Sequence record: OZ035810.1
Direction: 5' to 3' (one strand)
Length of the DNA stretch: 64,000 nt
Source: Gamaleyavirus AN24P2
Numbering within the stretch: the first letter of the stretch is position 1; each line of letters opens with the position of its first letter. The notes beneath the pieces were generated by a model, which was not told the origin of the DNA, searched no databases, and was given only the letters and a program-made list of their open reading frames with translations. Below are positions 3,016-63,735 of this stretch, one piece after another. The position numbers were made by a program, and so were the translations under genes.

Positions 3016-5282
3016 ATTCTCATAACCCATTTAATACGGGCAGTAACGGTTACTCCAATGACTTTTGTTCTGCTGACTCATTAGTAGATCGAATCATTGG
3101 GGATGCCTACCACGTAGTTAAGGAAGTTTACTTAGCACTGGATAACCTTACCTACATCTATAATTACCTACAGAAGTATGGCTTGATTATTACTGTAGAT
3201 AGTGAAGAGGCAATCAAGGATATCCCTTTATCAATTGGGAAGTTTGCTCGTGTCTACAATAAGTCTGAGTCAGTTGGTTACTACTTTACTGACTATCTTT
3301 ATGTAGATGATGATACCAGTGGCATTAGACCAAATGAACCAGGTGCTACTGGTTCTTGGGTTAGTACCAAAGCTACTGGTTCCAATGCCTCGTTTGTTCG
3401 CATTTGGAAATATCGGGCTAAGACTGATGGTGTTACGTCTATAAAGCTACCCACGGATGTTCCAATTGTTGGGGTGCAGACTATTTACGTGGAGGGGGTA
3501 AGACAGGATATCAATGAAGGTTTTTCCTACAATGAGGGTACTGCTACAATCACACTGGCTGACTCCTTAGAAGTTGGTAATCTGGTTACAGTTATTATAG
3601 GTGTAAATGACCCAGATATGGATGTGGATGTTTTCGCTATACTTAAGAATAGTGATGGTGCATCTAATATCGGTACTCAGTCTGGGGAAACTGTACAACA
3701 AGTTATCGACAGAAATTATGCGAATTTACGTGAGCATTGGCGTCGTCAACTTGCAGAAGCTGGCCTTAACCTTGTCGATGGTAGTTTTGAATACGGGGCT
3801 GAAGTGAGTACCCCCACGGATGCTGTTTGGTATATTGCTGAGGGTCAGTGCTATACGTGGGGGGGTTCACTGCCTAAATCTGTACCTGTAAATTCTAATC
3901 CAGAGAACTCTGGTGGAATTTCAGAAGACGGATGGAATAGTGTGACCTCTCAGTCAACACTGACGGTACTGGCTAAGTCTACTGGTGCACAGAAATCTGG
4001 GTATCGTTATAGTGATGTTTACTCCGTACTCTCCCGGTTTATGGCATACCAGGATCATAATATAGCTCAACCGGCACTAGGCCGTGATGAATCAACAAAC
4101 CAAACCATTTGGGATGCACAATCACAACTTGACTTAAAGCATCGTGGGGGTATTTTCGCAGGCAAGGAAACATATGGTATCCGTGAAAATTCTACCGTAG
4201 CATCATTCAGGGCTAACACAGGTACTGGTAGTGCATTTGTCCCTCAAGTAGCTGGAAGCGACGACCTTGCTGTGCTTGCACAAGCAGGTGCTATGGATAG
4301 CGTAGCTGTTTTCGCTGACACATGGTTAGGCGAATATAACTCATGGGAAGATATTGCTACAGCAAACTATACCGCAACTAGTTTTACCGTTAGCGATGCT
4401 TCATTGCTTGAAAAGGTGAAAGTTGGGCAATTTCTAATGACCAAACATTCATCTAGATATGTTGGCCTAGTAACTGGTATTTCAGGTGCTACTGTAACCG
4501 TCCAGAAGTGGGTTATTTATGGAACTTCAACAGTTGGAACGCCAGCTGATGGTGTCGGCTTATATGTAAACCCTGTTATAAAAGGCTGGGCAGTAAATGC
4601 TAATGTCCTTATAGGTCCCAACAGTAGAGCAGAGAAATGTGCATTATTTGAGTTTGGTCTTCAGAATAATGGAATACCTGATACTGCTCTCATTACTGGG
4701 GGGGACATAGTAGCTCTCAATGCGACTTATGGGGGTGGGGATGGTCTGCGAGTGAGAGGGACTTCAGCGACAGGAAGATGGACCAACGGTGTAAGTGCAT
4801 CTGGGGGTAGCTCTACAAATTTCCGGTCTTCTACAGGGCAAGGCCCTAGTAGTCTAGCTGCATTTTTAGAAGAGTCTGATTCTGCTACAGGGTTTCTTTT
4901 CAAGGGTAAGAACACTTCCCGATCAATTTCATGGCAGAATGCGTCTGGTGTTGAACAAGCTGCCTTAGCTCCTTATGGATTTGAGATTAAAGGTGGGAAG
5001 GGATTGAGTACCGCAGTGTCTGGAAATGCAGTCACTGCTGGTGGTAAGGTTGTAGTACAAAATTCATCGGCGTTTGCTTTAGTACTGCCGGACGCCAGTA
5101 ATTTCACGGCTGGTCGAGAGATTCACTTTATCGCTACTGGTGTTAGCCCTATCACTATTACTAGTGCACAACCAGGGGGTACTGTTAATGGTAACTCTAG
5201 CGTAATTATTACACCTACTTATGGCTTCTCAGAAATGACAGCTACATATGCAGGTGGTGGATTATGGTATGTTACAAGGTAA
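3006..5282 (+). CDS. tail fibre / appendage protein
   Basis: 758-aa protein rich in Gly/Ser/Thr, with an N-terminal ~150-aa region typical of a virion-attachment domain; precedes a second spike gene. Confidence 0.5.
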   Translation: MDMNSHNPFNTGSNGYSNDFCSADSLVDRIIGDAYHVVKEVYLALDNLTYIYNYLQKYGLIITVDSEEAIKDIPLSIGKFARVYNKSESVGYYFTDYLYVDDDTSGIRPNEPGATGSWVSTKATGSNASFVRIWKYRAKTDGVTSIKLPTDVPIVGVQTIYVEGVRQDINEGFSYNEGTATITLADSLEVGNLVTVIIGVNDPDMDVDVFAILKNSDGASNIGTQSGETVQQVIDRNYANLREHWRRQLAEAGLNLVDGSFEYGAEVSTPTDAVWYIAEGQCYTWGGSLPKSVPVNSNPENSGGISEDGWNSVTSQSTLTVLAKSTGAQKSGYRYSDVYSVLSRFMAYQDHNIAQPALGRDESTNQTIWDAQSQLDLKHRGGIFAGKETYGIRENSTVASFRANTGTGSAFVPQVAGSDDLAVLAQAGAMDSVAVFADTWLGEYNSWEDIATANYTATSFTVSDASLLEKVKVGQFLMTKHSSRYVGLVTGISGATVTVQKWVIYGTSTVGTPADGVGLYVNPVIKGWAVNANVLIGPNSRAEKCALFEFGLQNNGIPDTALITGGDIVALNATYGGGDGLRVRGTSATGRWTNGVSASGGSSTNFRSSTGQGPSSLAAFLEESDSATGFLFKGKNTSRSISWQNASGVEQAALAPYGFEIKGGKGLSTAVSGNAVTAGGKVVVQNSSAFALVLPDASNFTAGREIHFIATGVSPITITSAQPGGTVNGNSSVIITPTYGFSEMTATYAGGGLWYVTR

Positions 5283-21577: not shown

Positions 21578-21640
21578 TACACTGGCTTACTGTAGAGTAA
21601 GCTTCTTATATACGATATAAGTTTGAACAGGAAACATGCT

Positions 21641-24600
21641 ATGTCAACATTTGACCGTCTGGCAGGTTTCGCAGACAGCATCACTAATGCTAAGCAAGTC
21701 GATGTCTCTACTGCTACCTCTCAGAAGCAAGCTGCACAAGGGCAAAGCCCTTTCCAATTAACCCCAGAGAATGCTTACAATCTCCAAACTGGACGAGTAG
21801 GTAATTTAGGAATCGGTGCGTTCGAACCAGGTTCCCTCCAAGCTGATTTCACTCAGGCTTCCCCATTAGAAATTCTTAATAAATATGGTAATGAGCAAGG
21901 TCTACAGATTCTTAATAGCCGAGCTAATGCTGCTGATGCTGTACGTCAGGACTTATCTAAACAACGTACTAACGCAGAAGCATTTGGTGATACTCTTTCT
22001 GGTGTTGGTCTTGGTGTTGCTAATACCCTGGGGGGCATTGCTGCTCTTGGCACAGGTTTGGTCAATGATAATGCCGGGGCATCCATTGCTTCCGGGATGG
22101 ATTGGTTGAATGAAGGTGTGCACAATCTCCAGTCTGATGCACTGAATGTTACCCGTAAGGTTGTTCAGAATCAGAACCAGATTTCTGCTCAAAAGAACCA
22201 GAAACTTTACGAACAAGACATCAAAAATGGGGAGAGCAGCTTGGTTGCCTCCCTGTCTCGCATTGGTCGTGATGCTTTTGATTCTGTTGCTAATACACTT
22301 GATAACGGTATGGCTGCTACTGATGGGCTAAGTGAAGGTGTTGGTTCCCTCTTTACTGGTGGTCCACTTATCCGTGGTGTATCTGCACTCGGCAAAGTAA
22401 TGGTAGGTGGTGATAAAGCCGTTAAGGGTATTACCTTAGCTGCTGAGTTAGGTTCTCGTCCTGCACAGGTTGCATTGTCTGCTGGTCGTGTTGCTGCACC
22501 TGCTATTGCAATTGGTGGTATGGAAGCTGGTGGTGCATACCAACAGACTGCTTCTGAAATCATGAAGATGTCACATCAAGAATTAGCAAGTAAGTCTCCT
22601 GTTTATCAACAACATATTGCTGATGGTTTATCTCCTGATGAAGCTCGTCGTCAGACTGCATCTGAAACAGGTATCATTGCTGCTGGCTTAACTGCTCCGG
22701 TTGCTGCTGCTACTGGTCCACTGGTATCTAAATTTGAACTTAATCCACTTAAGGTAGGTTCACTGGTTGGTGCTGGTTCTAACATGCTGCGTGAAACTGT
22801 AGAAGAAGGTATCCAGTCTGGTACTAGTCAGTTTGCACAGAACAAAGCAATTCAAGGTAATGTAGATGCTAAACGTGACTTGCTTAAAGGTGTTGGTGAA
22901 CAAGCAGGTCTTGGTGCACTTTACGGCTTCGGTAGTGCTGGGGTTGCTCAAGCTCCAGGTGCAACTGTTAAAGCTGTTGGTGCTACTGCTGGTCCAGCCC
23001 TTCGTACTACTTTAGCCGGTGCTTCCCTGGTTGGTAGTGCACTAGCAAAAGCTGCATCTCCTCTTACTAACATCCTGGTTCAACGTGGTGAAGAAGTTGC
23101 TAAACGAAATGAACAAGCATCCCCTGTAGCTGATGCTACGGTTAATGCTGCTGCACAGGAAGCTGCTGCTCAGGCAGAACAAGCACAAGCAACTGTACAG
23201 GAAGCAGTAGATGCAATGGATATTTCTCCGGAAGAGAAAGCTGCTGCTACCCAGTATGCTGCTGACTTAACTCAGGCAATGAAGTTTGACCCGGTAGAAT
23301 TGGAACAAACTAACCCAGCAATCCGTGAAGCTGTTTCTGGTTCCACTAACCGTGTTGAAGCTATTCAGAAGATGGCTGACCTGGTTAATACTGCTGAGGA
23401 TCCTAACGTTCAAATGGAAGCTGCAATCCAGATGTATGACAATATCATGTCTATGGATAGCTTCATTAACCGTGACCCGGGTGCTCTGGCTAATCTGGAA
23501 CAAGGTTCTCCTGCTGCTGCGATTGTAGACCAGTTCTCCGGTCTGATGGCTAACGTACAGAATACTCCGAAGGTACTCCGTGCATTTCGTGCCATCCATT
23601 CCATGATTCAGGAACAGGCTGAAGCGGGTAAATTGAAAGCTACTGAAGAAGCTAACCAAGCTCAGGCAAACAACATTGCTATGGCTGCTGATGTGTCTCC
23701 AGAAGTTCTGGATGTAGAATCAGTGAACATGGTTCTGAAGCACGCAAGTGAAGGTAAGATTACATTAGGGAATCGTCAGCGTGCTGCCCTGCAATCTGCT
23801 GCTGCTCTATTGCAAGGAGCACGAGAATTTGACGCTAAAGCAGAAGAACTGGGCTTACGTCCTCAAGACATTGTTAGTAAACAAATTAAAACCGACGAAT
23901 CTCGTTCTAATGAAGGCCAGTACTCTGCGTTGCAACATGCTAAACGCATTCGTTCTGCGTACAACTCTGGTAACTTCGATTTGGCTTCCGCTTATCTCGA
24001 CGACTTTATGAAGTTCGCCCAGCACATGCAGAATAAGGTCGGAGCGTTGAATGAGCATTTGATTTCTGGGAATGCGGATAAGAATAAGTCTGTCCATTAT
24101 CAGGCTCTTACTCCCTCCCGTGAATGGGTACGTAGTCGTACTGGCCTCGGTGTCAATCCGTATGATACCAAGTCTGTTAAGTTTGCCCAGCAAGTAGGAC
24201 TGGAGGCCAAAACCGTAGCTGATATTGTTAATGCACTTGCTACGGCTTACCCGGAGCTTAATGTTTCTCATGTTAAAGTTACTCCATTAGATTCACGTCT
24301 GGACAAGCCTGCTGCCCAGGTGGTTAAAGAGTTCCGTCAGGGCAATCTTGATGCTGCTCAATCCCAACAGACCAATGAACCAGTGAATCAGGTTGATGAA
24401 ACTCCTGTTACAAAACAGGAACCAGTTACCCCTACTGTACAGACTAAACCCTCTGTTAGTGAAGCTGTTAAAACAGAACCTACTATTAAAGAGTCTAAAC
24501 CACAGTCTGTAAAAGAACCTGAGAACCAGTCCGAAAAGCAGGATGCTGCCATCACTAATGAGGATACCACTCAGGAAGTAGCTGAAACTAAAACGGAAAT

Positions 24601-27600
24601 GGAAGCAGTGTTCCCTGTCTATAACAATGACAAGACACCGAGCCAGTTCCTTAAAGCATTTGCTCTGCCGGAAGAACCTAAGACTCGTACCATTGGTTCT
24701 GAATCTCCTTTGACTGATGTTAAGCAAGCACTGTCTTCTGCTGCTCGCTTTGAAGCATTCACACAAAAAGAAAATAACGCTCTCACAAGTGATGTGATGA
24801 AACGTTATCAGGACTTACTGGGCTTTGGTGAAACTCTGAAGACTACTCTTTCTGACCGTCTGGCTAAGTTCCTTGCTAACAAAAATGTTGGTAAACGTTT
24901 TGCAGAAGGTACTGAAGCTAACCGTTGGGTAGGTGGTAAACTGCTGAATATCGTTGAACAAGACGGTGACACCTTTAAGTTCAATGACCAGTTGTTAGAG
25001 ACTGCTGTACTTGCTGGTCTGCAATGGCGACTAACTGCTACACAGAATGCTGCTGTTAAAGACATGAAAGACATAGCTGCTATTACTGGTGTAGAAGCAT
25101 CCCTGTTACCTGAAGGTATTCTGGCTGAATTTGAGAATGCTCAGACTCTGGTTGAAGCTACTAGCTCACTGGCTCAAAAGATTGAATCCTACTGGGGTTT
25201 GAATCGTAATCCTAATGCACCACTGGGCTATACCAAGGGTATCCCAATGGCAATGGCTACAGAGATTCTGTCTTCCCTTATTGAGATGGGTGAAGTTAAA
25301 GAGTCTATGCTGGATGTGTCTGAAATTGACCCAGCCTCCGATAAGACTGTAGGTCTGTACACCATTGAGAAGCTGGATGATAACGATGCCATTAACAATT
25401 TCCCTACTGCTATTGAGGAAGCTGTCCTCGTAGAACCAGAAGAGAAAATGTACTTTGGTGATGATATTCCTTCCGTGGCTCAAACTCAGTTACGTAATCC
25501 GGCTGTTAAGAATACCCCTGAACAGAAAGCTGCTCTTAAAGCAGAACAGGCTACTGAGTTCCGTGTACACATGCCTATGGTTAACTTCTATGAAGCATTA
25601 GGTCGTGACAACATTCTGGAACTGATGGGTGCTGGTACGCTTAATCCTGAACTACTGAACGTAAACACTGCTAAATCACTGGAAGGTAAGAACCTGTCAG
25701 TGTCTATGGCATATGATTCCTTGTTTGGGGTAATCAATCAGGTTCAGGAACAGGAGAATGGACTGGATACTCCTATTCACTATGGTTATAACATGACCCG
25801 TGTAGGTCGTATGCAGATGCTTGGTAAGAATAACCCACAATCCAGTAAGCTGGTGCGTGAAGCAATTCTGCCAACCTTCTCTACTATTGACTTGAGTAAT
25901 GAAAACAGCCAAACGTTCTCAGACTTCCAGTTAGGTCTGGCTCAGGCATTAGGCATCAAGGTACATAACATGTCCCGTGAAGCTATGTCTGAAAAGCTGA
26001 CTAAAGCTCTGGAAGGTAACCTGAAACCTGCTGTTGATATGATGGTTGAGTTTGATAAGTCTGGTCACTTACCAGTTGATGCAGTGGATATTCTGAAGAC
26101 GTCTCTTGGTGGCGATAAATCCTTCGTAGCTCTTATGGCTCTTATGGAATATGCCCGTTACCTGAACAGTGATGACCGTGCCAACTTTAATACCCCACTG
26201 TACGTTGAAGCCGATGGTGTAACTAACGGACCAATCAACGCAATGGTATTAATGACGGGTGGTAAGTTCACTTCAGACTGGGTTAAGAATACTGCTAAAG
26301 GTGGTCTGTTCTTTGGTAAAGCTGGTAAGACTATGAATGAACACCGTTCACAGGATGACAGTGTTGACTTGTATGAAGCATCTACCAACAGTCTGCAACA
26401 AGCTCTGAATGAGTTACGTACTACTTACCGTAACAACGTTCCGGTTATGAACCAGATGAATCATCTCCAAAAGTTAATGGACCTGTTCATTAAAGACTTT
26501 AACCTGAACGAAGACGGTACTCTGGACCTGAAGCGTGGTATCGCTAAAAACCCACTGACTATTACCATCTATGGTTCCGGTGCTCGTGGTATTGCAGGCA
26601 AGATGGTTAGTGCAATTACTGATACCATCTATGAACGCTTCAGTGACGTTCTGCAAGCTCGCGCTGCTGACCCTAGCATTTCCCCAGCTATGGCAATGTT
26701 TGGTAAAGAGGCTGCGTCTGAGACTGATGCTCAGGCTATGCTGGATACTTTCCTTACATCTATGGAAGCACTGACTGGTAATGTTCCAGTTATGCGTAAA
26801 GGTGAGCTGTCTATTCAACAAGTAGAAGGTGCTCTGACTGGTAAGTTAGACCCCCAGAAGTTTACTGTATCTGGTAATGCTCTGAAGAACCTGCAAGAGA
26901 ACATGCTTCACTTGTTCGTTGAACCAATGCGTACTGGTATTCGAAATACTGTTGGTGAAGGTCTAATGCACTCTACTGAGAACTTGCAGAAGGCTACCCA
27001 GATTCAGTCTCTGGTATTGCAAGACATGTTCCAGCAAGCAGTACAGACTAAGCTGGCAGAAAAAGAAAAAGACCCAACATGGAAGAAGGGTGATTTCTTA
27101 ACTCAGAAAGAACTGAACGAAATCCAGGAATCATTGTCTCCACTGGCTCCAATGATTGAGACTGGTTCGCAGACTTTCTACATTGCTGGTAGTGAGAATA
27201 CTGACGTTGCTAACCAAGTACTGGCTACCAACTTAGATGACCGTATGCGTGTGCCAATGAGCATCTATGCTCCTTCACAGGCAGGTGTTGCAGGTATTCC
27301 ATTTATGACCATTGGTACTGGCGATGGCATGATGATGCAGACCCTTTCTACTATGAAAGGTGCTCCGAAGAATACCCTGAAAATCTTTGATGGTATGAAC
27401 ATTGGTATCAATGACATCACTGATGCAAGTCGTAAAGCTAACGAGGCTGTATATACTTCCTGGCAGGGGAATCCTATCAAGAATGTTTATGACTCCTTTG
27501 CTAAGTTCATGAAGAACGTAGACTTCAGCAAACTGTCCGATGAAACTAAACAGGCTATCGCTAAGTCTGCTTTGGAATATGACCAGCGTGAGGGTGCTAC

Positions 27601-30600
27601 TGATGCCTTATTACGTGCAGGTGCTGAACAGATTGAGCGTAACTTGCGTAACATTGCTCTTGGTGTAGATATTCGCCATAAAGTAATGAACCAGGTACAG
27701 ACTACTGTTGACCAGATGGCTGCTGTAGGTGCTCCTTATGTGAACAACGGTAAAATCTCTCTGGAAGGTCTGACTGTAGACCAGCAAGTAGCTAAGCTGA
27801 ACGAATTGTTTGATGCTGAATTAAACAAACGTCGTGATGCAGTACGTGCTGCTAAAGCAGAACCAGTGAAAGAAGTACCAGCAATTGAGCAGGTTGGTCG
27901 TGTACTGAAGTCTGGTGTACGTCTGCTGTCTAATACTGCTATCTCTAAGCTGGCTAAAGAGATGTCTCAGGAACAACAAGCAGTACTGAAAGAAGTACAG
28001 AAATCCCCTGCTGCTAAAGACTACAAGGTTGTCTATGGTACACCTGCCCAACTGGATGCTTACGCTATTGAGAAGAACATTACTCGCCCAGCACCGGAAG
28101 ATATTGAAGCTGCTGAAGCAGGTAATGCATACGGCTGGACTAACTTCGAAGATAAGACCATTTATCTAGTTACCCCTTCCTTAGAAACTCTGGTTCATGA
28201 ATTGGTACATGCTTCTACTTTTGAATCTGTACTGACTCACTATGAAGGTACTCCTAATGAAGCAGTTCAGAACATTGAAGACCTGATGAACCAGTTCCGT
28301 GCTCTGGATGTTAAGGATGAATCTCCGGCAGTACGTGAAGCGTATGCTGATGCACTTAATACCATTAATGGTCACTTGTCCAATGGATTCATTGAGCCAT
28401 CAATGGCTAAAGCTGCTGCACTTAACGAGTACATGGCTTGGGGCTTAACCAACCGTGAACTGATTAGTAAGCAGAAGAAAACCACTGCACTTAAGACTAT
28501 GGTTCAGGCTGTGTATGAAGCAATCAAGCGTCTGGTATTTGGGCGTAAGAAAGCACCAGCTAATGCAGATGATATGTTCTCCGGCTTACTGTTTAACTCT
28601 GCTGTAGTAATGCGAGGACAAGCTCCTACTGCTGCTGTAGCTAAAGATACTACCCTGTTCCATAACAAAGCATACGGTGATAATACTCGTCTGGAAGAAT
28701 TAGGAAAAACCTTCGATAAGTTAATTACTGACTACATTGGTTCAGAACCAGTACAACAAGTAATTCGTAAAGGTAAGTTCTCTGATGCAGTAGTGAATGC
28801 AACTAAAGTAACCCGTGATGTTCAGGCTCATGGCTTCGCTATGAATATGCAGGAACAGCGTCTCTTTACTAACATTGTTGCTGCTCTGGCTACTGAGGCT
28901 GCTATTAACCCTGCTGCTTTGGCTCGTGCACAGGAATACTACACGCATGTTACTAAGAACCTGACTGTTGAAGCATTTATGGCTGACCCAGATAGTACTA
29001 ACCCTGCTGACCGTTATTACGCTCAACAGAAGTTCGATACCATCATGGGTGCTAACAATATTGAGTTTGATGCACAGGGACGTTCTTCCTTACTGCCTAC
29101 CTTTGTTGGGCTGGCAATGGTAAGTGAAGAAGTACGTAAGGTACTGGCTGATATTCCTGTTATGAAAGCAGATAAGCAATCCGGTAATACAGTTGATGCA
29201 ATGCTGACTAACATTGGTACTGCTGCAATGGCTAGTCTGAATGCTCGTGTAGCAGGTGATACCAAAGCTACTAATGTACAGGAAGGTATGGATGCACTGG
29301 CTCAAACAATCATGCAGACTAGCCTTAATGCACAGTCCTTTTATGATTCTGTTGCTACTCCTAGTGGTAATGCTATTGACCGTGCTAACCAGTATCTGGT
29401 GGACTCTATTGATGTATTGTCTACCCGTGCTTTAGAAGGTGCTCGTGAAGTTGCAGCTAATACCAAGAACCCGTTGGTTAAAGGTGCTGCTCATGCTGCA
29501 CAACTGATTGCTGCTATTGCTACAGAGAAGAATGGTGAAATCGTAGCCGAAGGAGTTATGGCTGCAATGAACCAGGGTAAGGTATGGCAACCTTTCCATG
29601 ACCTGGTTAATGACTTAACTGGTCGTACTAAGAGCAATGCTTCTGTGTATGATTTGATTAAGGCAGTTCGTGCACAGGTACAGGCTGACCGTCAACAATT
29701 CCGTGAACATTTGCCTACTACTATCGCATCTAAGTTCAGCCGTAAGCTGACTAATGATGAGTGGAAAGCAATGCACACTGGCATGGGTAAAACTGACTTG
29801 GCTGTCCTGCGTGACACTATGTCTTTGGCTGAAATCCGTGATTTGCTGTCGGACCAAAAGATTGTTGACCGTGAAGTGAATAAGCTGGAAGCAGATTTGC
29901 AGAAGCAAGCTGGACGTAACTGGCCTCTGATTAGTCGTAAATCTAAGCAACTGGCTCAGTTTATGATTAATGGTACAGTTGGTAATAACTTGCTGCGTAA
30001 TGCTACTGCAATTTCTCGTTTACTGGGTGAACGTAAGACTACTAGTTCTATTGTAGATGTAGCTAAACTGGATAAACTGATTACCCTGTATGCACTGGAA
30101 GCAATGAGTAATACTGACCGTGAGATGCTATCTTCACTGGCTCAAACAGAAGTTGATGGGATTGATTTTGCTACTTCTTACCTGGTTGGTCAGCGTAAAG
30201 ATGAAATGGCTAAAGCTAAGTCTGACATGCGTGCAACCCTGAACCAGTACAAAGGTTACATTCCTGGTGAGACTAAACAAGGTGTTAACCTGATTGTTGC
30301 TGAAGACAGTCAATTTGCTGATTTGATTGAGAAGTCCTATGTGCGACTGGGTACTTATCAGGGTAGCTCTGCTAATCGTGGTCCAGCACGTAGTTACTAC
30401 TTTGCACCAGTACAGGCACAGGCTCCATTCTCACAGGGTATCTTACAGAACGTTCGTAATACTGCTGGTGGTGTAGACCTTGGTACAGGCTTTACGATGG
30501 GTACAATGGTAGCTGGTCGTATCACTGACAAGCCTTCCGTAGACCGTATCACTAAAGCACTGGCTCGTGGTGAACGTGGTAATGAACCACTGCTGCCTGT

Positions 30601-31999
30601 GTATGATGACAAAGGTAATGTAGTTGCCTATGAGCAATCTATTGACCCTAACATGCTGAAGCACATTGAGGGTGAGAACCATCTTGCTCGTGCAATTGGT
30701 GTATGGCGTGGTCGTCAGGTAGAGGAAGCTAAGGCCCAGCGTTTCAACGATATGCTGATTGAAAATCTGCATAGCATGTACGAGAACGACATTAAAATGT
30801 CTGCCTCTAATAAGTCCCAGTATGTGAACCTTCTTGGTTCTAAACTGGACCCAGTAACTGCTGATGCTCTTAAACTGATGAACACTGAAACACGTCAGAA
30901 AGCAGAAAGCCTGTTTGGACCCGGTGAACTGTGGGTTCGTCGTGATATGCTGAATGATGCACTAGGCTATCGTGCAGCTTCTGTAGGTGATGCCTGGTCT
31001 GGCAATTCTCGTTGGTCCCCAGAAACACTGGATACCTTCAAGAAAGCTATGTTAGGTGTATTTGGCAACCGTGCTTACAAGTACGTAATGGGTGGTGAGA
31101 ACCTGGTTCAGAACTTAGTTAAAGAAGCTAAGACTCTGATTGTAGTTAAGTCAGTAGTTGTACCTGCTGTTAACTTCTTAGCTAACCTTTACCAGATGGT
31201 TGGTCGTGGTGTACCTGTTAAGAACATTGCTAAGAGCATTCCACAGAAGACTGCTGAGATTAACCAGTACCTGAAATCTCGTCTGCGTCAGGTAGATGCA
31301 GAAGCAGAATTACGAGCAGCTACTAATCCGAACCAGATTCGTAAACTTAAAGCTGAGATTCAGTCCATTACTGATAGTCATAAGCGTATGAGTATCTGGC
31401 CTCTATTAGAAGCTGGGGAGTTCTCTTCAATTGCAGATGCTGGTATTGGACGTGATGATATCCTGATTACTGAGGGTAAACTCCATGAATACATGGATAA
31501 GCTGGCTGATAAGTTACCTAAGTCAGTACGTACTGCTGGTCGTTATGCACTTATCACTAAGGATACTGCTTTGTTCCAGGGTATCCAGAAAACGGTTGAG
31601 TACTCTGACTTTATCGCTAAAGCAATCATCTATGATGACTTAACTCAGCGTAAAGGTAAGACACGTGAAGAAGCACTTGGACGTGTAACTGAAGAGTTCA
31701 TTAACTATGACCGTCTGCCGGGACGTTTCCGTGGCTATATGGAAAGTGTTGGTCTTATGTGGTTCTACAACTTTAAGATTCGTTCTGCAAAAGTTGCAGT
31801 GTCCATGATTCGTAATAACCCGGTCCATGCAGCAATGGCGATGTTGGCTCCAACTCCTACCATGTTTGGTAACGTTGGCTTACCTATTCAGGACAACATC
31901 TTTAGCATTGCTGCTAAGGATAGTCTGGATTACTCTTGGGGCTTTGGACAAGGGCTTCGTGCTCACAACCTGAACCCTTGGATGAACCTGGTAAACTAA
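21641..31999 (+). CDS. virion-encapsidated RNA polymerase (vRNAP, N4 gp50-like)
   Basis: Single uninterrupted ORF of about 3,452 aa from the ATG at 21641 (ORF-track start 21623 is TTG); size and position match N4 vRNAP; AGGAAA RBS. Confidence 0.8.
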   Translation: MSTFDRLAGFADSITNAKQVDVSTATSQKQAAQGQSPFQLTPENAYNLQTGRVGNLGIGAFEPGSLQADFTQASPLEILNKYGNEQGLQILNSRANAADAVRQDLSKQRTNAEAFGDTLSGVGLGVANTLGGIAALGTGLVNDNAGASIASGMDWLNEGVHNLQSDALNVTRKVVQNQNQISAQKNQKLYEQDIKNGESSLVASLSRIGRDAFDSVANTLDNGMAATDGLSEGVGSLFTGGPLIRGVSALGKVMVGGDKAVKGITLAAELGSRPAQVALSAGRVAAPAIAIGGMEAGGAYQQTASEIMKMSHQELASKSPVYQQHIADGLSPDEARRQTASETGIIAAGLTAPVAAATGPLVSKFELNPLKVGSLVGAGSNMLRETVEEGIQSGTSQFAQNKAIQGNVDAKRDLLKGVGEQAGLGALYGFGSAGVAQAPGATVKAVGATAGPALRTTLAGASLVGSALAKAASPLTNILVQRGEEVAKRNEQASPVADATVNAAAQEAAAQAEQAQATVQEAVDAMDISPEEKAAATQYAADLTQAMKFDPVELEQTNPAIREAVSGSTNRVEAIQKMADLVNTAEDPNVQMEAAIQMYDNIMSMDSFINRDPGALANLEQGSPAAAIVDQFSGLMANVQNTPKVLRAFRAIHSMIQEQAEAGKLKATEEANQAQANNIAMAADVSPEVLDVESVNMVLKHASEGKITLGNRQRAALQSAAALLQGAREFDAKAEELGLRPQDIVSKQIKTDESRSNEGQYSALQHAKRIRSAYNSGNFDLASAYLDDFMKFAQHMQNKVGALNEHLISGNADKNKSVHYQALTPSREWVRSRTGLGVNPYDTKSVKFAQQVGLEAKTVADIVNALATAYPELNVSHVKVTPLDSRLDKPAAQVVKEFRQGNLDAAQSQQTNEPVNQVDETPVTKQEPVTPTVQTKPSVSEAVKTEPTIKESKPQSVKEPENQSEKQDAAITNEDTTQEVAETKTEMEAVFPVYNNDKTPSQFLKAFALPEEPKTRTIGSESPLTDVKQALSSAARFEAFTQKENNALTSDVMKRYQDLLGFGETLKTTLSDRLAKFLANKNVGKRFAEGTEANRWVGGKLLNIVEQDGDTFKFNDQLLETAVLAGLQWRLTATQNAAVKDMKDIAAITGVEASLLPEGILAEFENAQTLVEATSSLAQKIESYWGLNRNPNAPLGYTKGIPMAMATEILSSLIEMGEVKESMLDVSEIDPASDKTVGLYTIEKLDDNDAINNFPTAIEEAVLVEPEEKMYFGDDIPSVAQTQLRNPAVKNTPEQKAALKAEQATEFRVHMPMVNFYEALGRDNILELMGAGTLNPELLNVNTAKSLEGKNLSVSMAYDSLFGVINQVQEQENGLDTPIHYGYNMTRVGRMQMLGKNNPQSSKLVREAILPTFSTIDLSNENSQTFSDFQLGLAQALGIKVHNMSREAMSEKLTKALEGNLKPAVDMMVEFDKSGHLPVDAVDILKTSLGGDKSFVALMALMEYARYLNSDDRANFNTPLYVEADGVTNGPINAMVLMTGGKFTSDWVKNTAKGGLFFGKAGKTMNEHRSQDDSVDLYEASTNSLQQALNELRTTYRNNVPVMNQMNHLQKLMDLFIKDFNLNEDGTLDLKRGIAKNPLTITIYGSGARGIAGKMVSAITDTIYERFSDVLQARAADPSISPAMAMFGKEAASETDAQAMLDTFLTSMEALTGNVPVMRKGELSIQQVEGALTGKLDPQKFTVSGNALKNLQENMLHLFVEPMRTGIRNTVGEGLMHSTENLQKATQIQSLVLQDMFQQAVQTKLAEKEKDPTWKKGDFLTQKELNEIQESLSPLAPMIETGSQTFYIAGSENTDVANQVLATNLDDRMRVPMSIYAPSQAGVAGIPFMTIGTGDGMMMQTLSTMKGAPKNTLKIFDGMNIGINDITDASRKANEAVYTSWQGNPIKNVYDSFAKFMKNVDFSKLSDETKQAIAKSALEYDQREGATDALLRAGAEQIERNLRNIALGVDIRHKVMNQVQTTVDQMAAVGAPYVNNGKISLEGLTVDQQVAKLNELFDAELNKRRDAVRAAKAEPVKEVPAIEQVGRVLKSGVRLLSNTAISKLAKEMSQEQQAVLKEVQKSPAAKDYKVVYGTPAQLDAYAIEKNITRPAPEDIEAAEAGNAYGWTNFEDKTIYLVTPSLETLVHELVHASTFESVLTHYEGTPNEAVQNIEDLMNQFRALDVKDESPAVREAYADALNTINGHLSNGFIEPSMAKAAALNEYMAWGLTNRELISKQKKTTALKTMVQAVYEAIKRLVFGRKKAPANADDMFSGLLFNSAVVMRGQAPTAAVAKDTTLFHNKAYGDNTRLEELGKTFDKLITDYIGSEPVQQVIRKGKFSDAVVNATKVTRDVQAHGFAMNMQEQRLFTNIVAALATEAAINPAALARAQEYYTHVTKNLTVEAFMADPDSTNPADRYYAQQKFDTIMGANNIEFDAQGRSSLLPTFVGLAMVSEEVRKVLADIPVMKADKQSGNTVDAMLTNIGTAAMASLNARVAGDTKATNVQEGMDALAQTIMQTSLNAQSFYDSVATPSGNAIDRANQYLVDSIDVLSTRALEGAREVAANTKNPLVKGAAHAAQLIAAIATEKNGEIVAEGVMAAMNQGKVWQPFHDLVNDLTGRTKSNASVYDLIKAVRAQVQADRQQFREHLPTTIASKFSRKLTNDEWKAMHTGMGKTDLAVLRDTMSLAEIRDLLSDQKIVDREVNKLEADLQKQAGRNWPLISRKSKQLAQFMINGTVGNNLLRNATAISRLLGERKTTSSIVDVAKLDKLITLYALEAMSNTDREMLSSLAQTEVDGIDFATSYLVGQRKDEMAKAKSDMRATLNQYKGYIPGETKQGVNLIVAEDSQFADLIEKSYVRLGTYQGSSANRGPARSYYFAPVQAQAPFSQGILQNVRNTAGGVDLGTGFTMGTMVAGRITDKPSVDRITKALARGERGNEPLLPVYDDKGNVVAYEQSIDPNMLKHIEGENHLARAIGVWRGRQVEEAKAQRFNDMLIENLHSMYENDIKMSASNKSQYVNLLGSKLDPVTADALKLMNTETRQKAESLFGPGELWVRRDMLNDALGYRAASVGDAWSGNSRWSPETLDTFKKAMLGVFGNRAYKYVMGGENLVQNLVKEAKTLIVVKSVVVPAVNFLANLYQMVGRGVPVKNIAKSIPQKTAEINQYLKSRLRQVDAEAELRAATNPNQIRKLKAEIQSITDSHKRMSIWPLLEAGEFSSIADAGIGRDDILITEGKLHEYMDKLADKLPKSVRTAGRYALITKDTALFQGIQKTVEYSDFIAKAIIYDDLTQRKGKTREEALGRVTEEFINYDRLPGRFRGYMESVGLMWFYNFKIRSAKVAVSMIRNNPVHAAMAMLAPTPTMFGNVGLPIQDNIFSIAAKDSLDYSWGFGQGLRAHNLNPWMNLVN

Positions 32000-60212: not shown

Positions 60213-60479
60213 TTAGATAATTACATAGTAGATAGCAAAAGCTATCCATCCTGCCATTACAAAGCAGCCAAGTGAGTATGCTCCATAGTAACAGTAAGCA
60301 AACTTAGACTTGTGGGCACGAACTATCGTAGCCAGAACCAGTACAGATAAAACTATCAGTATTATCTGAGAGATTACTTCAAAAGGGATTAGCATAGTTA
60401 TTACCTCCAAGCAAAAAATAAAGCCCCACTCCCGAAGGAATGAGGCTAGTTTATTAATACACTTGCACAGTCCAGCCAT
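60213..60479 (-). CDS. small membrane protein
   Basis: 88 aa; two hydrophobic helices. Confidence 0.3.
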   Translation of the reverse strand: MAGLCKCINKLASFLREWGFIFCLEVITMLIPFEVISQIILIVLSVLVLATIVRAHKSKFAYCYYGAYSLGCFVMAGWIAFAIYYVII

Positions 60480-60580: not shown

Positions 60581-61798
60581 TTAGCTAAGGGCATAATCGG
60601 CCTCCAGAATGTCTTGCCAGAGGCTGTCATCCAGCTTACCAGCAGAGAACTCTTGTCCAAGTACCTGGGACAGGATGAATCCCAGTAGGTCACTCTTCGC
60701 AATGTCAGACAGAATCTGATTGTACTGACGACGTAGGTCATTACCATAGTTAGGGTGGCAACGGAAGCAGTCATGTACAGTCATTACAGGGAATGGCTTC
60801 TTAGGCATAGTGTCAATCATATCTGCTACTACTTGACGGTCTACCAATGCAATAGTATTCGGGTCAAGGAAGTCTAGGATAGACAGCGACAGGAATCCAG
60901 ATTTCTCATAATGATTCCAGATTTCCATAGTTTTCTCTTGGTTCCCTTCAATAACAGGGTATTCACTTGGTCCGATATCGCACAGTTCACGTACATAGGC
61001 AACCAGTTTAGGATCGAAGTTACAACGACGCAGCATCTCACGTACCACCATTCCATCAATAGAGTGAGTGATGTTAGCAGAAAGCATACGGGTCTTCTCT
61101 TCAGTACCCTGAACCATACGAGTGATGTCAAATGGCTTACCTAAGAAGTTAACAGTTTGTACTTCTGGAACCATGACCTTAATGACAGCATGGAAGTTGT
61201 CAGGTAATACCCATACGTAACGGTTAGCATCCGGGTTACCACATTGCAGTAAGAACTTGTTCAATGCCCAAGGACCACTAGCAACAGTTTCCATTACATT
61301 CTCAAAAGTCTTGAGACGAATACCTTCACCGAATACTTCTTTAGGCTTGGCTTCTGAACCGTAGAATGCAGTCATAACTGCCTGCTTAGTGTCACTACGT
61401 TTAATACGAGATGCTTCACCAAGGATGTCCAGCATCTTATGATAGATAACTGTATAAGCATCACGACGTAATGGCTTACCATTCTCTCCCATGTAATTAA
61501 CTACGTTACACAGTTCAGCAGCAGAACGGTCACCAGTCAGGCAAGCCAGTAACTGCAATCCTGACGATGTAGCATCCAGAGCCACGGCATACCCAATAGG
61601 CTTACCTGCTTTCATGTCTTTCCATGCGTTTAAGCCAGCATAGAACAGTGCAGATTCTTCAGCTTCATCTACCAGATTAAGTAGGTTAGCCTCATTCTCA
61701 TCGAACCAAGTAATACGTTCATCCCAGGTCTTTTTATCCAGACCATAGTTATTGGCGATGTCTACTTTCAAGTATTCTTTAGCGGTTAACAGTTGCAT
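60581..61798 (-). CDS. phage RNA polymerase II large subunit (T7-like catalytic subunit, N4 gp16-like)
   Basis: 405 aa (N4 gp16 is 404 aa); T7 RNAP motif A-like ALDATSSGLQLLA, motif B-like TAFYGSEAK, motif C-like VHDCFRC; AAGGA RBS. Confidence 0.7.
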   Translation of the reverse strand: MQLLTAKEYLKVDIANNYGLDKKTWDERITWFDENEANLLNLVDEAEESALFYAGLNAWKDMKAGKPIGYAVALDATSSGLQLLACLTGDRSAAELCNVVNYMGENGKPLRRDAYTVIYHKMLDILGEASRIKRSDTKQAVMTAFYGSEAKPKEVFGEGIRLKTFENVMETVASGPWALNKFLLQCGNPDANRYVWVLPDNFHAVIKVMVPEVQTVNFLGKPFDITRMVQGTEEKTRMLSANITHSIDGMVVREMLRRCNFDPKLVAYVRELCDIGPSEYPVIEGNQEKTMEIWNHYEKSGFLSLSILDFLDPNTIALVDRQVVADMIDTMPKKPFPVMTVHDCFRCHPNYGNDLRRQYNQILSDIAKSDLLGFILSQVLGQEFSAGKLDDSLWQDILEADYALS

Positions 61799-61855: not shown

Positions 61856-62095
61856 TTAGCCAGCATTAAATGATGACAATACTATTCCTGGTTCCACACC
61901 TTCGGTGGCAATACCTAGGTACTCGATGTGCACTCTCTCAGGAGAGGAACACCAGGCGGAAGACAGATTCCATTCTCCGTCTGGATTAATAAGGCGAGCT
62001 TCTTCTTTAGTTTTGGCCGCTACAACGGCAGAATCGTATGTATCCCACCCTGTGTTCTCTTCCTGGCTAATAAGCCATAGTTTTAATCTACTCAT
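61856..62095 (-). CDS. small hypothetical protein between the RNAP II subunits
   Basis: 79-aa ORF overlapping the stop of the RNAP II small-subunit gene. Confidence 0.3.
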   Translation of the reverse strand: MSRLKLWLISQEENTGWDTYDSAVVAAKTKEEARLINPDGEWNLSSAWCSSPERVHIEYLGIATEGVEPGIVLSSFNAG

Positions 62096-62906
62096 CGTTT
62101 ACTAACTCCTTATTAGCGAACTCCAGTACAGCTTTGTTGTAGCTGGTTCCCTGATAGTTAATGTGATAGCCCTGAGCGTAAGTACGCCCACGTTTGTCAT
62201 ATTTGTGACCTAGTGAGAAGTTATTACCTTCTTTGGACACTAACTCCATTACTTCCTTAGCAGTACGGCTGTACTTCTCAAAGGCTTTAACACGTTTCTC
62301 ATAATCCTGACGGGTTTCGCCCTCTTTGGGCTTATCCATATTAGGACGGGAGTCTTTTACATAGTTAGCAACGTCCCAGTTAATGCTTAGACGTTGATTA
62401 TTCATACGGTTGATGTGGTCAAGACAGACATCCATCTCATGATGGTTCTTCTTGAGGATGATACTTCCTCTGCTCTCGTAGTAACCTGTATCACGGTTAC
62501 ACAGAACAGGCTTAGGAGCACTTACGATAGGTAATGGATATTGGAATGCTTCCAGTTCCATCTGTACATCTTCACTAATCTCATAGATAACACCGAATTT
62601 GTCGATGGTAGGGTCATAGTTGAAGCAGTCATTCTCTGCCATTTTATACAGACAGTCGGCGATGTACTGAGCATCATCTGAGTGGTTCATGAGAGAGCCA
62701 ATCATAGTCTGAAGGTCAGCACGTTTATGTAGGGCAATCTGCACCATTGCATCAATGAGCAGCTTATAATCAATTTCCAAATAGGCAGCGAATGCCTTAA
62801 AGTCAATTTCTTCGGAGTCCTCAAATTCCTTCCTCATACGAGGGAGTAACTGGCATTTATTAAACAGTGTTTCTAAAGTCTTTTGATGCTCAATGGATGC
62901 GTACAT
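62088..62906 (-). CDS. phage RNA polymerase II small subunit (N4 gp15-like)
   Basis: 272 aa (N4 gp15 is about 269 aa); directly upstream of the catalytic subunit. Confidence 0.6.
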   Translation of the reverse strand: MYASIEHQKTLETLFNKCQLLPRMRKEFEDSEEIDFKAFAAYLEIDYKLLIDAMVQIALHKRADLQTMIGSLMNHSDDAQYIADCLYKMAENDCFNYDPTIDKFGVIYEISEDVQMELEAFQYPLPIVSAPKPVLCNRDTGYYESRGSIILKKNHHEMDVCLDHINRMNNQRLSINWDVANYVKDSRPNMDKPKEGETRQDYEKRVKAFEKYSRTAKEVMELVSKEGNNFSLGHKYDKRGRTYAQGYHINYQGTSYNKAVLEFANKELVNDE

Positions 62907-62929
62907 AGCTTCTTTCCTATATGAGTTAA

Positions 62930-63406
62930 TTATTTACCGTGATTCGGATGATAGCCGAGAAGATACATAGCTCTTTCTCGTGCTTTACTGGCTTCTTCTA
63001 TAGTATCGAAGTAGCCTAGGTGTTTTAGCTTACCGTCTATACTTATTCGTGCACTCCACTTCTGTAACTTTGCATACCACCCGACACCAGTAACACCGGA
63101 TTTGTTTCTTTTATCTTTGGATTTATTCTTCATGTTTCCTGCATGAGTGGTTAAATTAAGATTACTTAGTAGATTGTTGGCTCTGTTCCTGTCGTCATGG
63201 TCTATTACCATTCCAGGAGGAACTGGGCCATTATGCATCTCCCATATGATTACATGGACACGGTATTGCTTTGCTTTATACATGAAGGTGAGATAGCCGG
63301 TATGATGCATACTTCCTGCTTCATCCCCTATTTTTACTCGTACTGCTGGTTTAATCTTCCAGTATATTCTGCCATTGGCATACTCAAAGATTTCATGCCA
63401 ATTCAT
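62930..63406 (-). CDS. HNH homing endonuclease with AP2 DNA-binding domain
   Basis: 158 aa; HNH_3-like VIDHDDRNRANNLLSNLNLTTHAGN; AP2-like SGVTGVGWYAKLQKWSARISIDGKLKHLGYFDTIEEASKAR; ATG with AGGAG RBS. Confidence 0.7.
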   Translation of the reverse strand: MNWHEIFEYANGRIYWKIKPAVRVKIGDEAGSMHHTGYLTFMYKAKQYRVHVIIWEMHNGPVPPGMVIDHDDRNRANNLLSNLNLTTHAGNMKNKSKDKRNKSGVTGVGWYAKLQKWSARISIDGKLKHLGYFDTIEEASKARERAMYLLGYHPNHGK

Positions 63407-63430
63407 CGCATATTCTCCTAAATGTGATTA

Positions 63431-63455
63431 ATAACCAAAAGCTGCGGAGCAGCTA
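63431..63455. promoter_or_regulatory. hairpin with 3-nt GGA loop preceded by AAAAG: candidate vRNAP-type early promoter and/or minus-strand terminator
   Basis: Plus strand CCAAAAG-CTGC-GGA-GCAG-CT; on the minus strand the same hairpin is followed by TTTTGG. It lies in the only sizeable intergenic gap in the early region. Confidence 0.4.
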
Positions 63456-63459
63456 TTAC

Positions 63460-63735
63460 CTAACGTTTAGTCCAAAAGGTAATACGAATACTGTTCTCTT
63501 GACCAAGGTAGTCAATACGTACATATAAACCATTACCGCTAAACTCGTTATTTTTCTTCTGGTAAGGCCATACCAGACTACGCATAGGTATTTTAATTAA
63601 ACCAGATATATGACCTAGTTTAGTACGACCCTTTAGTTCGTTTTGTAATGCACAATAGATATCATGCCGTGTAAGTGCCCTGGCTCTGACTTGAGCAGCC
63701 CATAGTTCTTCATATGTCATTTGGTAGTCTCCCAA
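63460..63735 (-). CDS. hypothetical early protein
   Basis: 91-aa ORF, minus strand. Confidence 0.35.
   Translation of the reverse strand: MGDYQMTYEELWAAQVRARALTRHDIYCALQNELKGRTKLGHISGLIKIPMRSLVWPYQKKNNEFSGNGLYVRIDYLGQENSIRITFWTKR

Follow-up and report, generated by a model that had tools for sequence, protein, structure and literature searches.

In the genome of Gamaleyavirus AN24P2, a small DNA hairpin at 63440-63454 on the + strand is, with a probability that we put at roughly 0.9 from sequence comparison, an early promoter of the virion RNA polymerase (vRNAP) and the P3 of an N4-like phage. The window analysed is the whole 64,000-nucleotide stretch of this phage presented under OZ035810.1. 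Over 2 kb around the hairpin it is 100% identical to OZ035740.1, an unannotated record of 71,225 bp with equal coordinates, and positions beyond the window are given on that record. AN24P2 belongs to the genus Gamaleyavirus (Schitoviridae, Enquatrovirinae) and is a close relative of coliphage N4; about 58 G7C-like and N4-like coliphages match it at 80-95% identity. The element is already known, being orthologous to, and identical in sequence with, a classical promoter whose biochemistry and structure have been characterised. An initial sequence-only reading of the window had proposed an early promoter of the vRNAP type at this site, and orthology with N4, the published promoter determinants and conservation among relatives all support that proposal.

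What does the element look like? On the + strand, positions 63435-63454 read CC AAAA GCTGC GGA GCAGC T. A perfect 6-bp stem, AGCTGC/GCAGCT, pairs 63440-63445 with 63449-63454 and encloses the loop GGA at 63446-63448. Both the sequence and its fold as single-stranded DNA agree with the original description of AAAAG followed by a hairpin with a 3-nt GGA loop and a central G: ViennaRNA with DNA parameters returns exactly the predicted stem-loop, at -5.7 kcal/mol. This folding energy is unexceptional (z = -1.72; 10 of 200 shuffles fold equally well), and a generic energy model is uninformative for GNA mini-hairpins. The significance of the hairpin comes from the specificity of the motif and not from its folding energy. 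It sits in a 53-bp gap between the open reading frames at 63460-63735 and 62930-63406, which is not the only sizeable gap of the early gene run, as had been thought, since others close by measure 57, 74 and 101 bp. A consensus scan found no sigma-70 promoter in the 53-bp gap, and no Rfam match reached the gathering threshold in record 60000-71225. Because the early genes here lie on the - strand, the + strand is the template.

Conservation among the promoters of N4 vRNAP spans -17 to +1 and takes in a GC-rich heptamer, which is centred at -11 between inverted repeats (PMC4496689). The polymerase specifically recognises -11A/G, -10G, -8G and +1C, the -11 purine being contacted by W129 and R119; extrusion of the hairpin needs a G:C loop-closing pair together with a 5' G and a 3' A in the loop (PMC4496689). 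The four A's between stem and start serve as a ruler only, and the non-conserved bases of the stem are free as long as they pair (PMC4496689).

How does the AN24P2 hairpin compare? Its heptamer GCGGAGC, or 'mini-hairpin', occupies 63444-63450 and is invariant in 12/12 aligned promoters. The heptamer is centred on G63447, which supplies the purine at -11, and covers -8G, -9C, -10G, -11G, -12A, -13G and -14C, the bases that vRNAP contacts or that extrusion requires. Of these, -10G (G63446) and -12A (A63448) would form the sheared G:A pair, -9C:-13G (C63445:G63449) closes the loop, and -8G (G63444) is the base contacted by R904 in the major groove. The stem has a functional core of 5 bp, in which -5 to -9 (63441-63445) pair with -13 to -17 (63449-63453); A63440:T63454 adds a sixth pair, which the beta-intercalating hairpin of the polymerase would open, as in N4 P2_7a. 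Next comes the 4-nt spacer AAAA, -1 to -4 (63437-63440), the 'molecular ruler' that lacks base contacts (PMC4496689). It varies among relatives, and on the - strand it reads TTTT, the seeming tail of a terminator. Behind it stands C63436, the predicted +1, which keeps the N4 distance of 11 nt to the loop centre and is invariantly C/G in relatives. RNA is predicted to start there with G and to run leftward on the - strand through a 30-nt 5' leader (63407-63436) with the ribosome-binding site GGAG at 63418-63415. Comparison with relatives identifies the leader sequence through the ATG (63406-63404) as the ancestral leader of RNAP1. The 3-nt loop and its stem lie on the template strand of the - strand early genes, 5' of those genes and in the same orientation, at the genome end that is presumably injected first, and stem bases change among relatives only with pairing retained. 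Judged by its sequence, the hairpin carries every sequence determinant published for N4 vRNAP promoters.

To identify its counterpart, the complete N4 genome (EF056009) was scanned for the heptamer GCGRAGC on the template strand. Four matches were found, and exactly three of these combine a stem of 5 bp or more with a +1C. Their loop centres are at 96, 565 and 4554; they precede gp1, precede gp2 and occupy the gp14/gp15 gap, respectively, all on the template strand of the early region. The mapped promoters of N4 are also three, P1-P3, within the leftmost ~10% or ~8 kb of the genome (PMC4496689; PMC13492108), and the literature lists gp1, gp2, gp15 and gp16 as early genes (PMC13434306; PMC13492108). 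Since exactly three such hairpins face three mapped promoters, the hairpin at 4554 is taken, by elimination, to be P3. The template strand of the AN24P2 hairpin is identical to it from +1 to -18 (CAAAAGCTGCGGAGCAGCT), the 15 positions 63440-63454 corresponding to EF056009 4547-4561. N4 P3 reads ...ACGTTAGGCAATAAGCTGCTCCGCAGCTTTTGGTAATTAAT...GGAGAATATGCGATG ahead of gp15 and the AN24P2 site reads ...ACGTTAGGTAATAGCTGCTCCGCAGCTTTTGGTTATTAAT...GGAGAATATGCGATG.

The likeness first drawn was to N4 P2, given as AAAAGAAGCGGAGCTTC. That sequence is correct, matching the - strand of EF056009 at 556-580, and the likeness in layout holds; the true counterpart is P3, whereas P2 differs at the variable stem positions. 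Just before gp2, the coding strand of N4 P2 reads GAAGC-TCC-GCTTC-TTTT-GG. N4 P2 is the promoter crystallised with mini-vRNAP (PDB 3C3L).

Does AN24P2 possess the other two promoters as well? We defined the full motif as the heptamer GCGRAGC with a stem of at least 5 bp and a C 11 nt from the loop centre. The whole AN24P2 genome contains four heptamers, three of which have stems of 5-6 bp and a +1C; all three are on the + strand, with loop centres at 63447, 67934 and 68771. A first-order Markov null of the genome (Markov-1) predicts 5.6 heptamers and 0.028 full motifs against the 3 observed, and 0 of 1000 simulations reached 3. The two further hairpins lie outside the window, in the genome end where a search for additional copies had been proposed. 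That at 67934 (GACGC-GGA-GCGTC, + strand; locus L001 7929-7941) precedes the gp2 homolog, and that at 68771 (ACATGC-GGA-GCATGT, + strand; L001 8766-8778) precedes the gp1 homolog. Their flanks align with N4 P2 and P1, respectively, which makes them the P2 and P1 orthologs; the loop is GAA in N4 P1 and GGA in its AN24P2 ortholog. The fourth heptamer, at 28833-28839 of the window on the - strand, falls inside the vRNAP gene, has a 2-bp stem and a T at +1, and is judged a chance occurrence. A search allowing three mismatches turned up one more candidate at record ~70615 (AAATGGGGTAGAGCCTC), which was rejected: it is without the heptamer and belongs to a terminator-like hairpin of 11 bp on the opposite strand.

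The left terminus of N4 (nt 1-110, including P1) aligns to record ~68,760-68,867 (L001 8760-8870), away from its ends, which means that OZ035740.1 presents the physical genome in reversed and circularly permuted form. The distance from P3 to the inferred left terminus (record ~68,867), presumably the end injected first, is about 5.4 kb, against 4.55 kb in N4. The segment at 68.9-71.2 kb of the record corresponds to an N4-type right end.

An 81-nt query around the hairpin matched 69 phage records. In each of the 13 relatives fetched from the phage database (13/13), the locus holds exactly one heptamer hairpin, at the homologous position, and the hairpin is kept upstream of RNAP1 in all 14 IMG/VR loci with an RNAP1 identity of 70% or more. 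It is thus retained in 27/27 related loci examined, among which the heptamer and +1 never vary. The outer stem, by contrast with these invariant positions, occurs at the orthologous P3 site as GCTGC/GCAGC, GGTGC/GCACC and GCAGC/GCTGC, with compensated double changes at -6/-16 and -7/-15. In an alignment of 12 promoters, comprising P1-P3 of both phages plus P3 variants, 100% of the cells are paired, the three outer pairs show compensatory changes and the two inner pairs are invariant. The covariation score of this alignment is 0.545, whereas shuffles score 0.087 and slid registers no more than 0.124, and the pattern of stem covariation is that described biochemically for N4. These results confirm strict conservation, throughout Enquatrovirinae, of the N4 promoter code: heptamer GCGRAGC, -8G, +1C at 11 nt, and outer stem bases that are free but paired.

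The hairpin is kept despite a different upstream gene in pSb-1, G7C, U1G and Jgk1, and despite extra downstream DNA in Mimir124, SP5M, K57alpha1.2 and E20. As it is retained when either flank is replaced, it behaves as a discrete module. In the more distant IMG/VR loci L031-L036, with RNAP1 at most 54% identical, no perfect-stem heptamer hairpin was found upstream of RNAP1. One of these, L033, a distant N4-like contig with RNAP1 43% identical, contains a 7-bp hairpin, CGAGCTC-GCA-GAGCTCG, ~35 nt before RNAP1 (locus ~2466). On the template strand the loop reads TGC, which places a G at its centre, and the hairpin may be a divergent P3 analogue without the GCGRAGC heptamer.

Which enzyme would read the hairpin? 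The window encodes a homolog of N4 gp50, the virion RNA polymerase, in the open reading frame 21623-31999 on the + strand (likely start 21641; 3458 aa). The protein is 67% identical to N4 gp50, and 71% over the mini-vRNAP domain, and it matches the solved structures of N4 vRNAP. Of nine promoter-contact residues, eight are kept (K114, R119, W129, K268, K849, K850, D901 and R904 in mini-vRNAP numbering). The ninth, K267 of the beta-intercalating hairpin, is D in AN24P2 vRNAP (residue ~1240), which counts against the promoter reading. From its sequence, AN24P2 vRNAP is expected to be the enzyme that reads the hairpin.

For N4 P1 and P2, gyrase- and supercoil-dependent extrusion and activation by EcoSSB are established (PMC4496689). 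We infer both for AN24P2 because the loop and its closing pair are identical to those of N4; the exact start and the extent of the transcript are likewise carried over from N4 biochemistry. After injection, negative supercoiling driven by gyrase would extrude the inverted repeat at 63440-63454, and the + strand hairpin GCTGC-GGA-GCAGC would owe its stability to the GGA mini-hairpin loop and would not be disrupted by host SSB. Injected vRNAP would then bind the hairpin through -11G, -10G and -8G and start RNA with G opposite template C63436. Extending leftward, the - strand transcript would take in the HNH endonuclease gene, RNAP1, a small ORF and RNAP2, and would probably end at the terminator near 60422-60447.

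Could the same hairpin act in RNA as well? On the - strand, the RNA would read AGCUGC-UCC-GCAGCU followed by UUUU. It is conceivable that the element, while primarily a vRNAP promoter, also pauses or partly terminates read-through from P1 and P2 or stabilises upstream 3' ends. The geometry permits both roles, and the tail is TTTT in N4 and most Gamaleyaviruses. Nevertheless, the tail is not conserved in many relatives and is weak versus the other terminators in the region, and the literature examined gave no evidence of N4 promoters terminating. We therefore regard a double function as improbable, and any secondary pausing role as possible but at most minor.

Still less probable is that the element is simply an intrinsic, rho-independent terminator that stops upstream early transcripts after the gp14-like ORF. 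The sequence-only reading had noted a U-run behind the hairpin on the - strand and had held that the site could equally be a terminator. A simple consensus scan does flag it as terminator-like on that strand (6 pairs, 4 of them G-C, tail TTTGGTTATT), and the hairpin begins 5 nt past the TAG of ORF 63460-63735. The U-run is indeed present, but its importance was overstated, as it is just 4 nt long and is followed by GG. Among relatives the tail is TTTT, TTTA, TTTG, TTGA, TTGT, TTTC or TTAA, whereas the hairpin and the +1 G are invariant, which indicates selection on the hairpin and the start base and not on a U-tract. The claimed parity between the two functions is not supported. P1, moreover, has the same layout of a hairpin plus TTWTGG beside the genome end, with nothing upstream to terminate. 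The convincing terminators of this neighbourhood have 8-11 bp stems, tetraloops and long T-runs, and folding the region as RNA gives nothing out of the ordinary (z = -0.6). An intrinsic terminator combines a stable GC-rich RNA hairpin with a conserved U-tract, usually of at least 5-6 U, and this combination is absent here. What the site shares with intrinsic terminators is a GC-rich hairpin with T's behind it on the coding strand; the 3-nt loop, the short stem and the non-conserved run of four T's differ, and the features that are conserved are those read as DNA on the template strand.

The genes downstream of the proposed promoter are, as first described, an HNH endonuclease and RNAP II. On the - strand, 62930-63406 encodes an HNH_3 homing endonuclease with a weak AP2-like tail (Pfam E = 3e-17 for HNH_3), 62088-62906 the small subunit of RNAPII (N4 gp15, RNAP1), recognised by homology with annotated relatives, and 60581-61798 the large subunit (N4 gp16, RNAP2), which matches Pfam RNA_pol as a T7-type fragment. 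The first strong terminator-like site 3' of the RNAPII genes is at 60422-60447 (- strand; L001 448-423), with an 11-bp stem, a tetraloop and a T-rich tail, and it is likely to be the end of the P3 transcription unit. It overlaps the start of the mechanically called ORF 60213-60479, whose real start may lie further downstream. Further strong terminator-like hairpins occur at 60214-60195 of the window (- strand), likewise 3' of RNAP2, and, 3' of the gp2 homolog, at record 67423-67404.

In N4 and most relatives, P3 directly serves RNAP1. Homology between AN24P2 and these relatives extends from the hairpin through GGAGAATATGCGATG, stops just after the ATG and resumes at the ATG of RNAP1 500 bp on. 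It follows that a 500-bp HNH cassette (62907-63403, - strand) was inserted exactly at the start codon of RNAP1, where it uses the ancestral leader, ribosome-binding site and ATG. Downstream of the promoter the HNH gene now comes first, and RNAP1 is preceded by a new ribosome-binding site, ataGGAAAGaagctATG, supplied by the cassette. Although the hairpin stands immediately upstream of the HNH ORF, the notion that it arrived with the cassette, as the cassette's own regulatory or target element and not a resident phage promoter, is refuted by comparison with HNH-less relatives, dozens of which share the hairpin and the 30-nt leader to the ATG at 95-99% identity and start RNAP1 at the same ATG, the cassette boundary lying after it.

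Among 50,697 phage records, no other was found with an HNH cassette at the P3-RNAP1 site; the closest HNH homologs are 52% identical and lie elsewhere in many phages. A different gene occupies the slot in eight other Gamaleyavirus-like loci, namely a family of ~76-85 aa ORFs (M..AVSI.EI..KRH..KW..Y) between the P3 hairpin and RNAP1, starting ~10-14 nt after the predicted +1 (L009 1851-2105; L013 1850-2080; L011 and L012 from 1850; L020 from 2223; L023 from 2248; L024 from 2245; L030 from 2236). The presence of this ~80-aa ORF in some loci only makes the P3-RNAP1 slot a presence/absence hotspot. Why should genes gather there? We offer tentatively, and with more doubt than confidence, that the slot just after the P3 start is a recurrent landing pad for accessory or selfish genes, which the injected polymerase would there express as early as possible, ahead of the synthesis of any phage protein. 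Should P3 really drive its production at time zero, the endonuclease could cut co-infecting relatives or alter the amounts of the RNAPII subunits, which govern the switch to middle transcription.

The value of these results lies mainly in annotation. OZ035740.1 is without features, and its early promoters can now be placed at the loop centres 68771, 67934 and 63447 and the P3 transcription unit delimited. No new question is opened by the promoter; the sole point of mild interest is the variable position after P3, here taken by a homing endonuclease.

How does the AN24P2 promoter relate to the known systems? Alignment with the N4 promoters, which the initial reading had suggested as a check, places it closest to P3. 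The two share, beyond their sequence, a place in the gap that separates the gp14-like gene from the RNAPII genes, the same leader with its ribosome-binding site, and a cognate polymerase with conserved contact residues. They differ in the first gene served, which is the inserted HNH endonuclease in AN24P2 and RNAP1 in N4, in the possible length of the stem (6 bp and 7 bp, respectively) and in their farther flanks, which have diverged to about 80% identity over 63 nt. With N4 P1 and P2 the hairpin has in common the heptamer GCGRAGC, the +1C, a 4-nt A-rich spacer and a stem of 5-7 bp. The variable stem positions set these two apart (GAAGC/GCTTC in P2; GTTGC/GCAAC with a GAA loop in P1), as does their location before gp2 and gp1.

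Hairpin promoters have also been predicted in other N4-like phages: in KP8, where P1-P4 include one before the RNAP genes (PMC6950046), in LUZ7 and LIT1 (PMC3715699) and in Pectobacterium phage CB1 (PMC6027278). In LUZ7 they were mapped by ONT-cappable-seq, with nine early transcription start sites (PMC9163698). These phages are more distant from AN24P2, but they resemble it in having early-region hairpins with 3-nt loops and a central purine, one of them ahead of the RNAP genes, and KP8 P4 (AAGCAGCTCCGCTGCTTGTGG) matches the variant present in IMG/VR loci L027-L030 (PMC6950046). Spacing distinguishes LUZ7, in which transcription starts 13-14 nt from the hairpin centre (PMC9163698), whereas AN24P2 keeps the N4 spacing of 11 nt.
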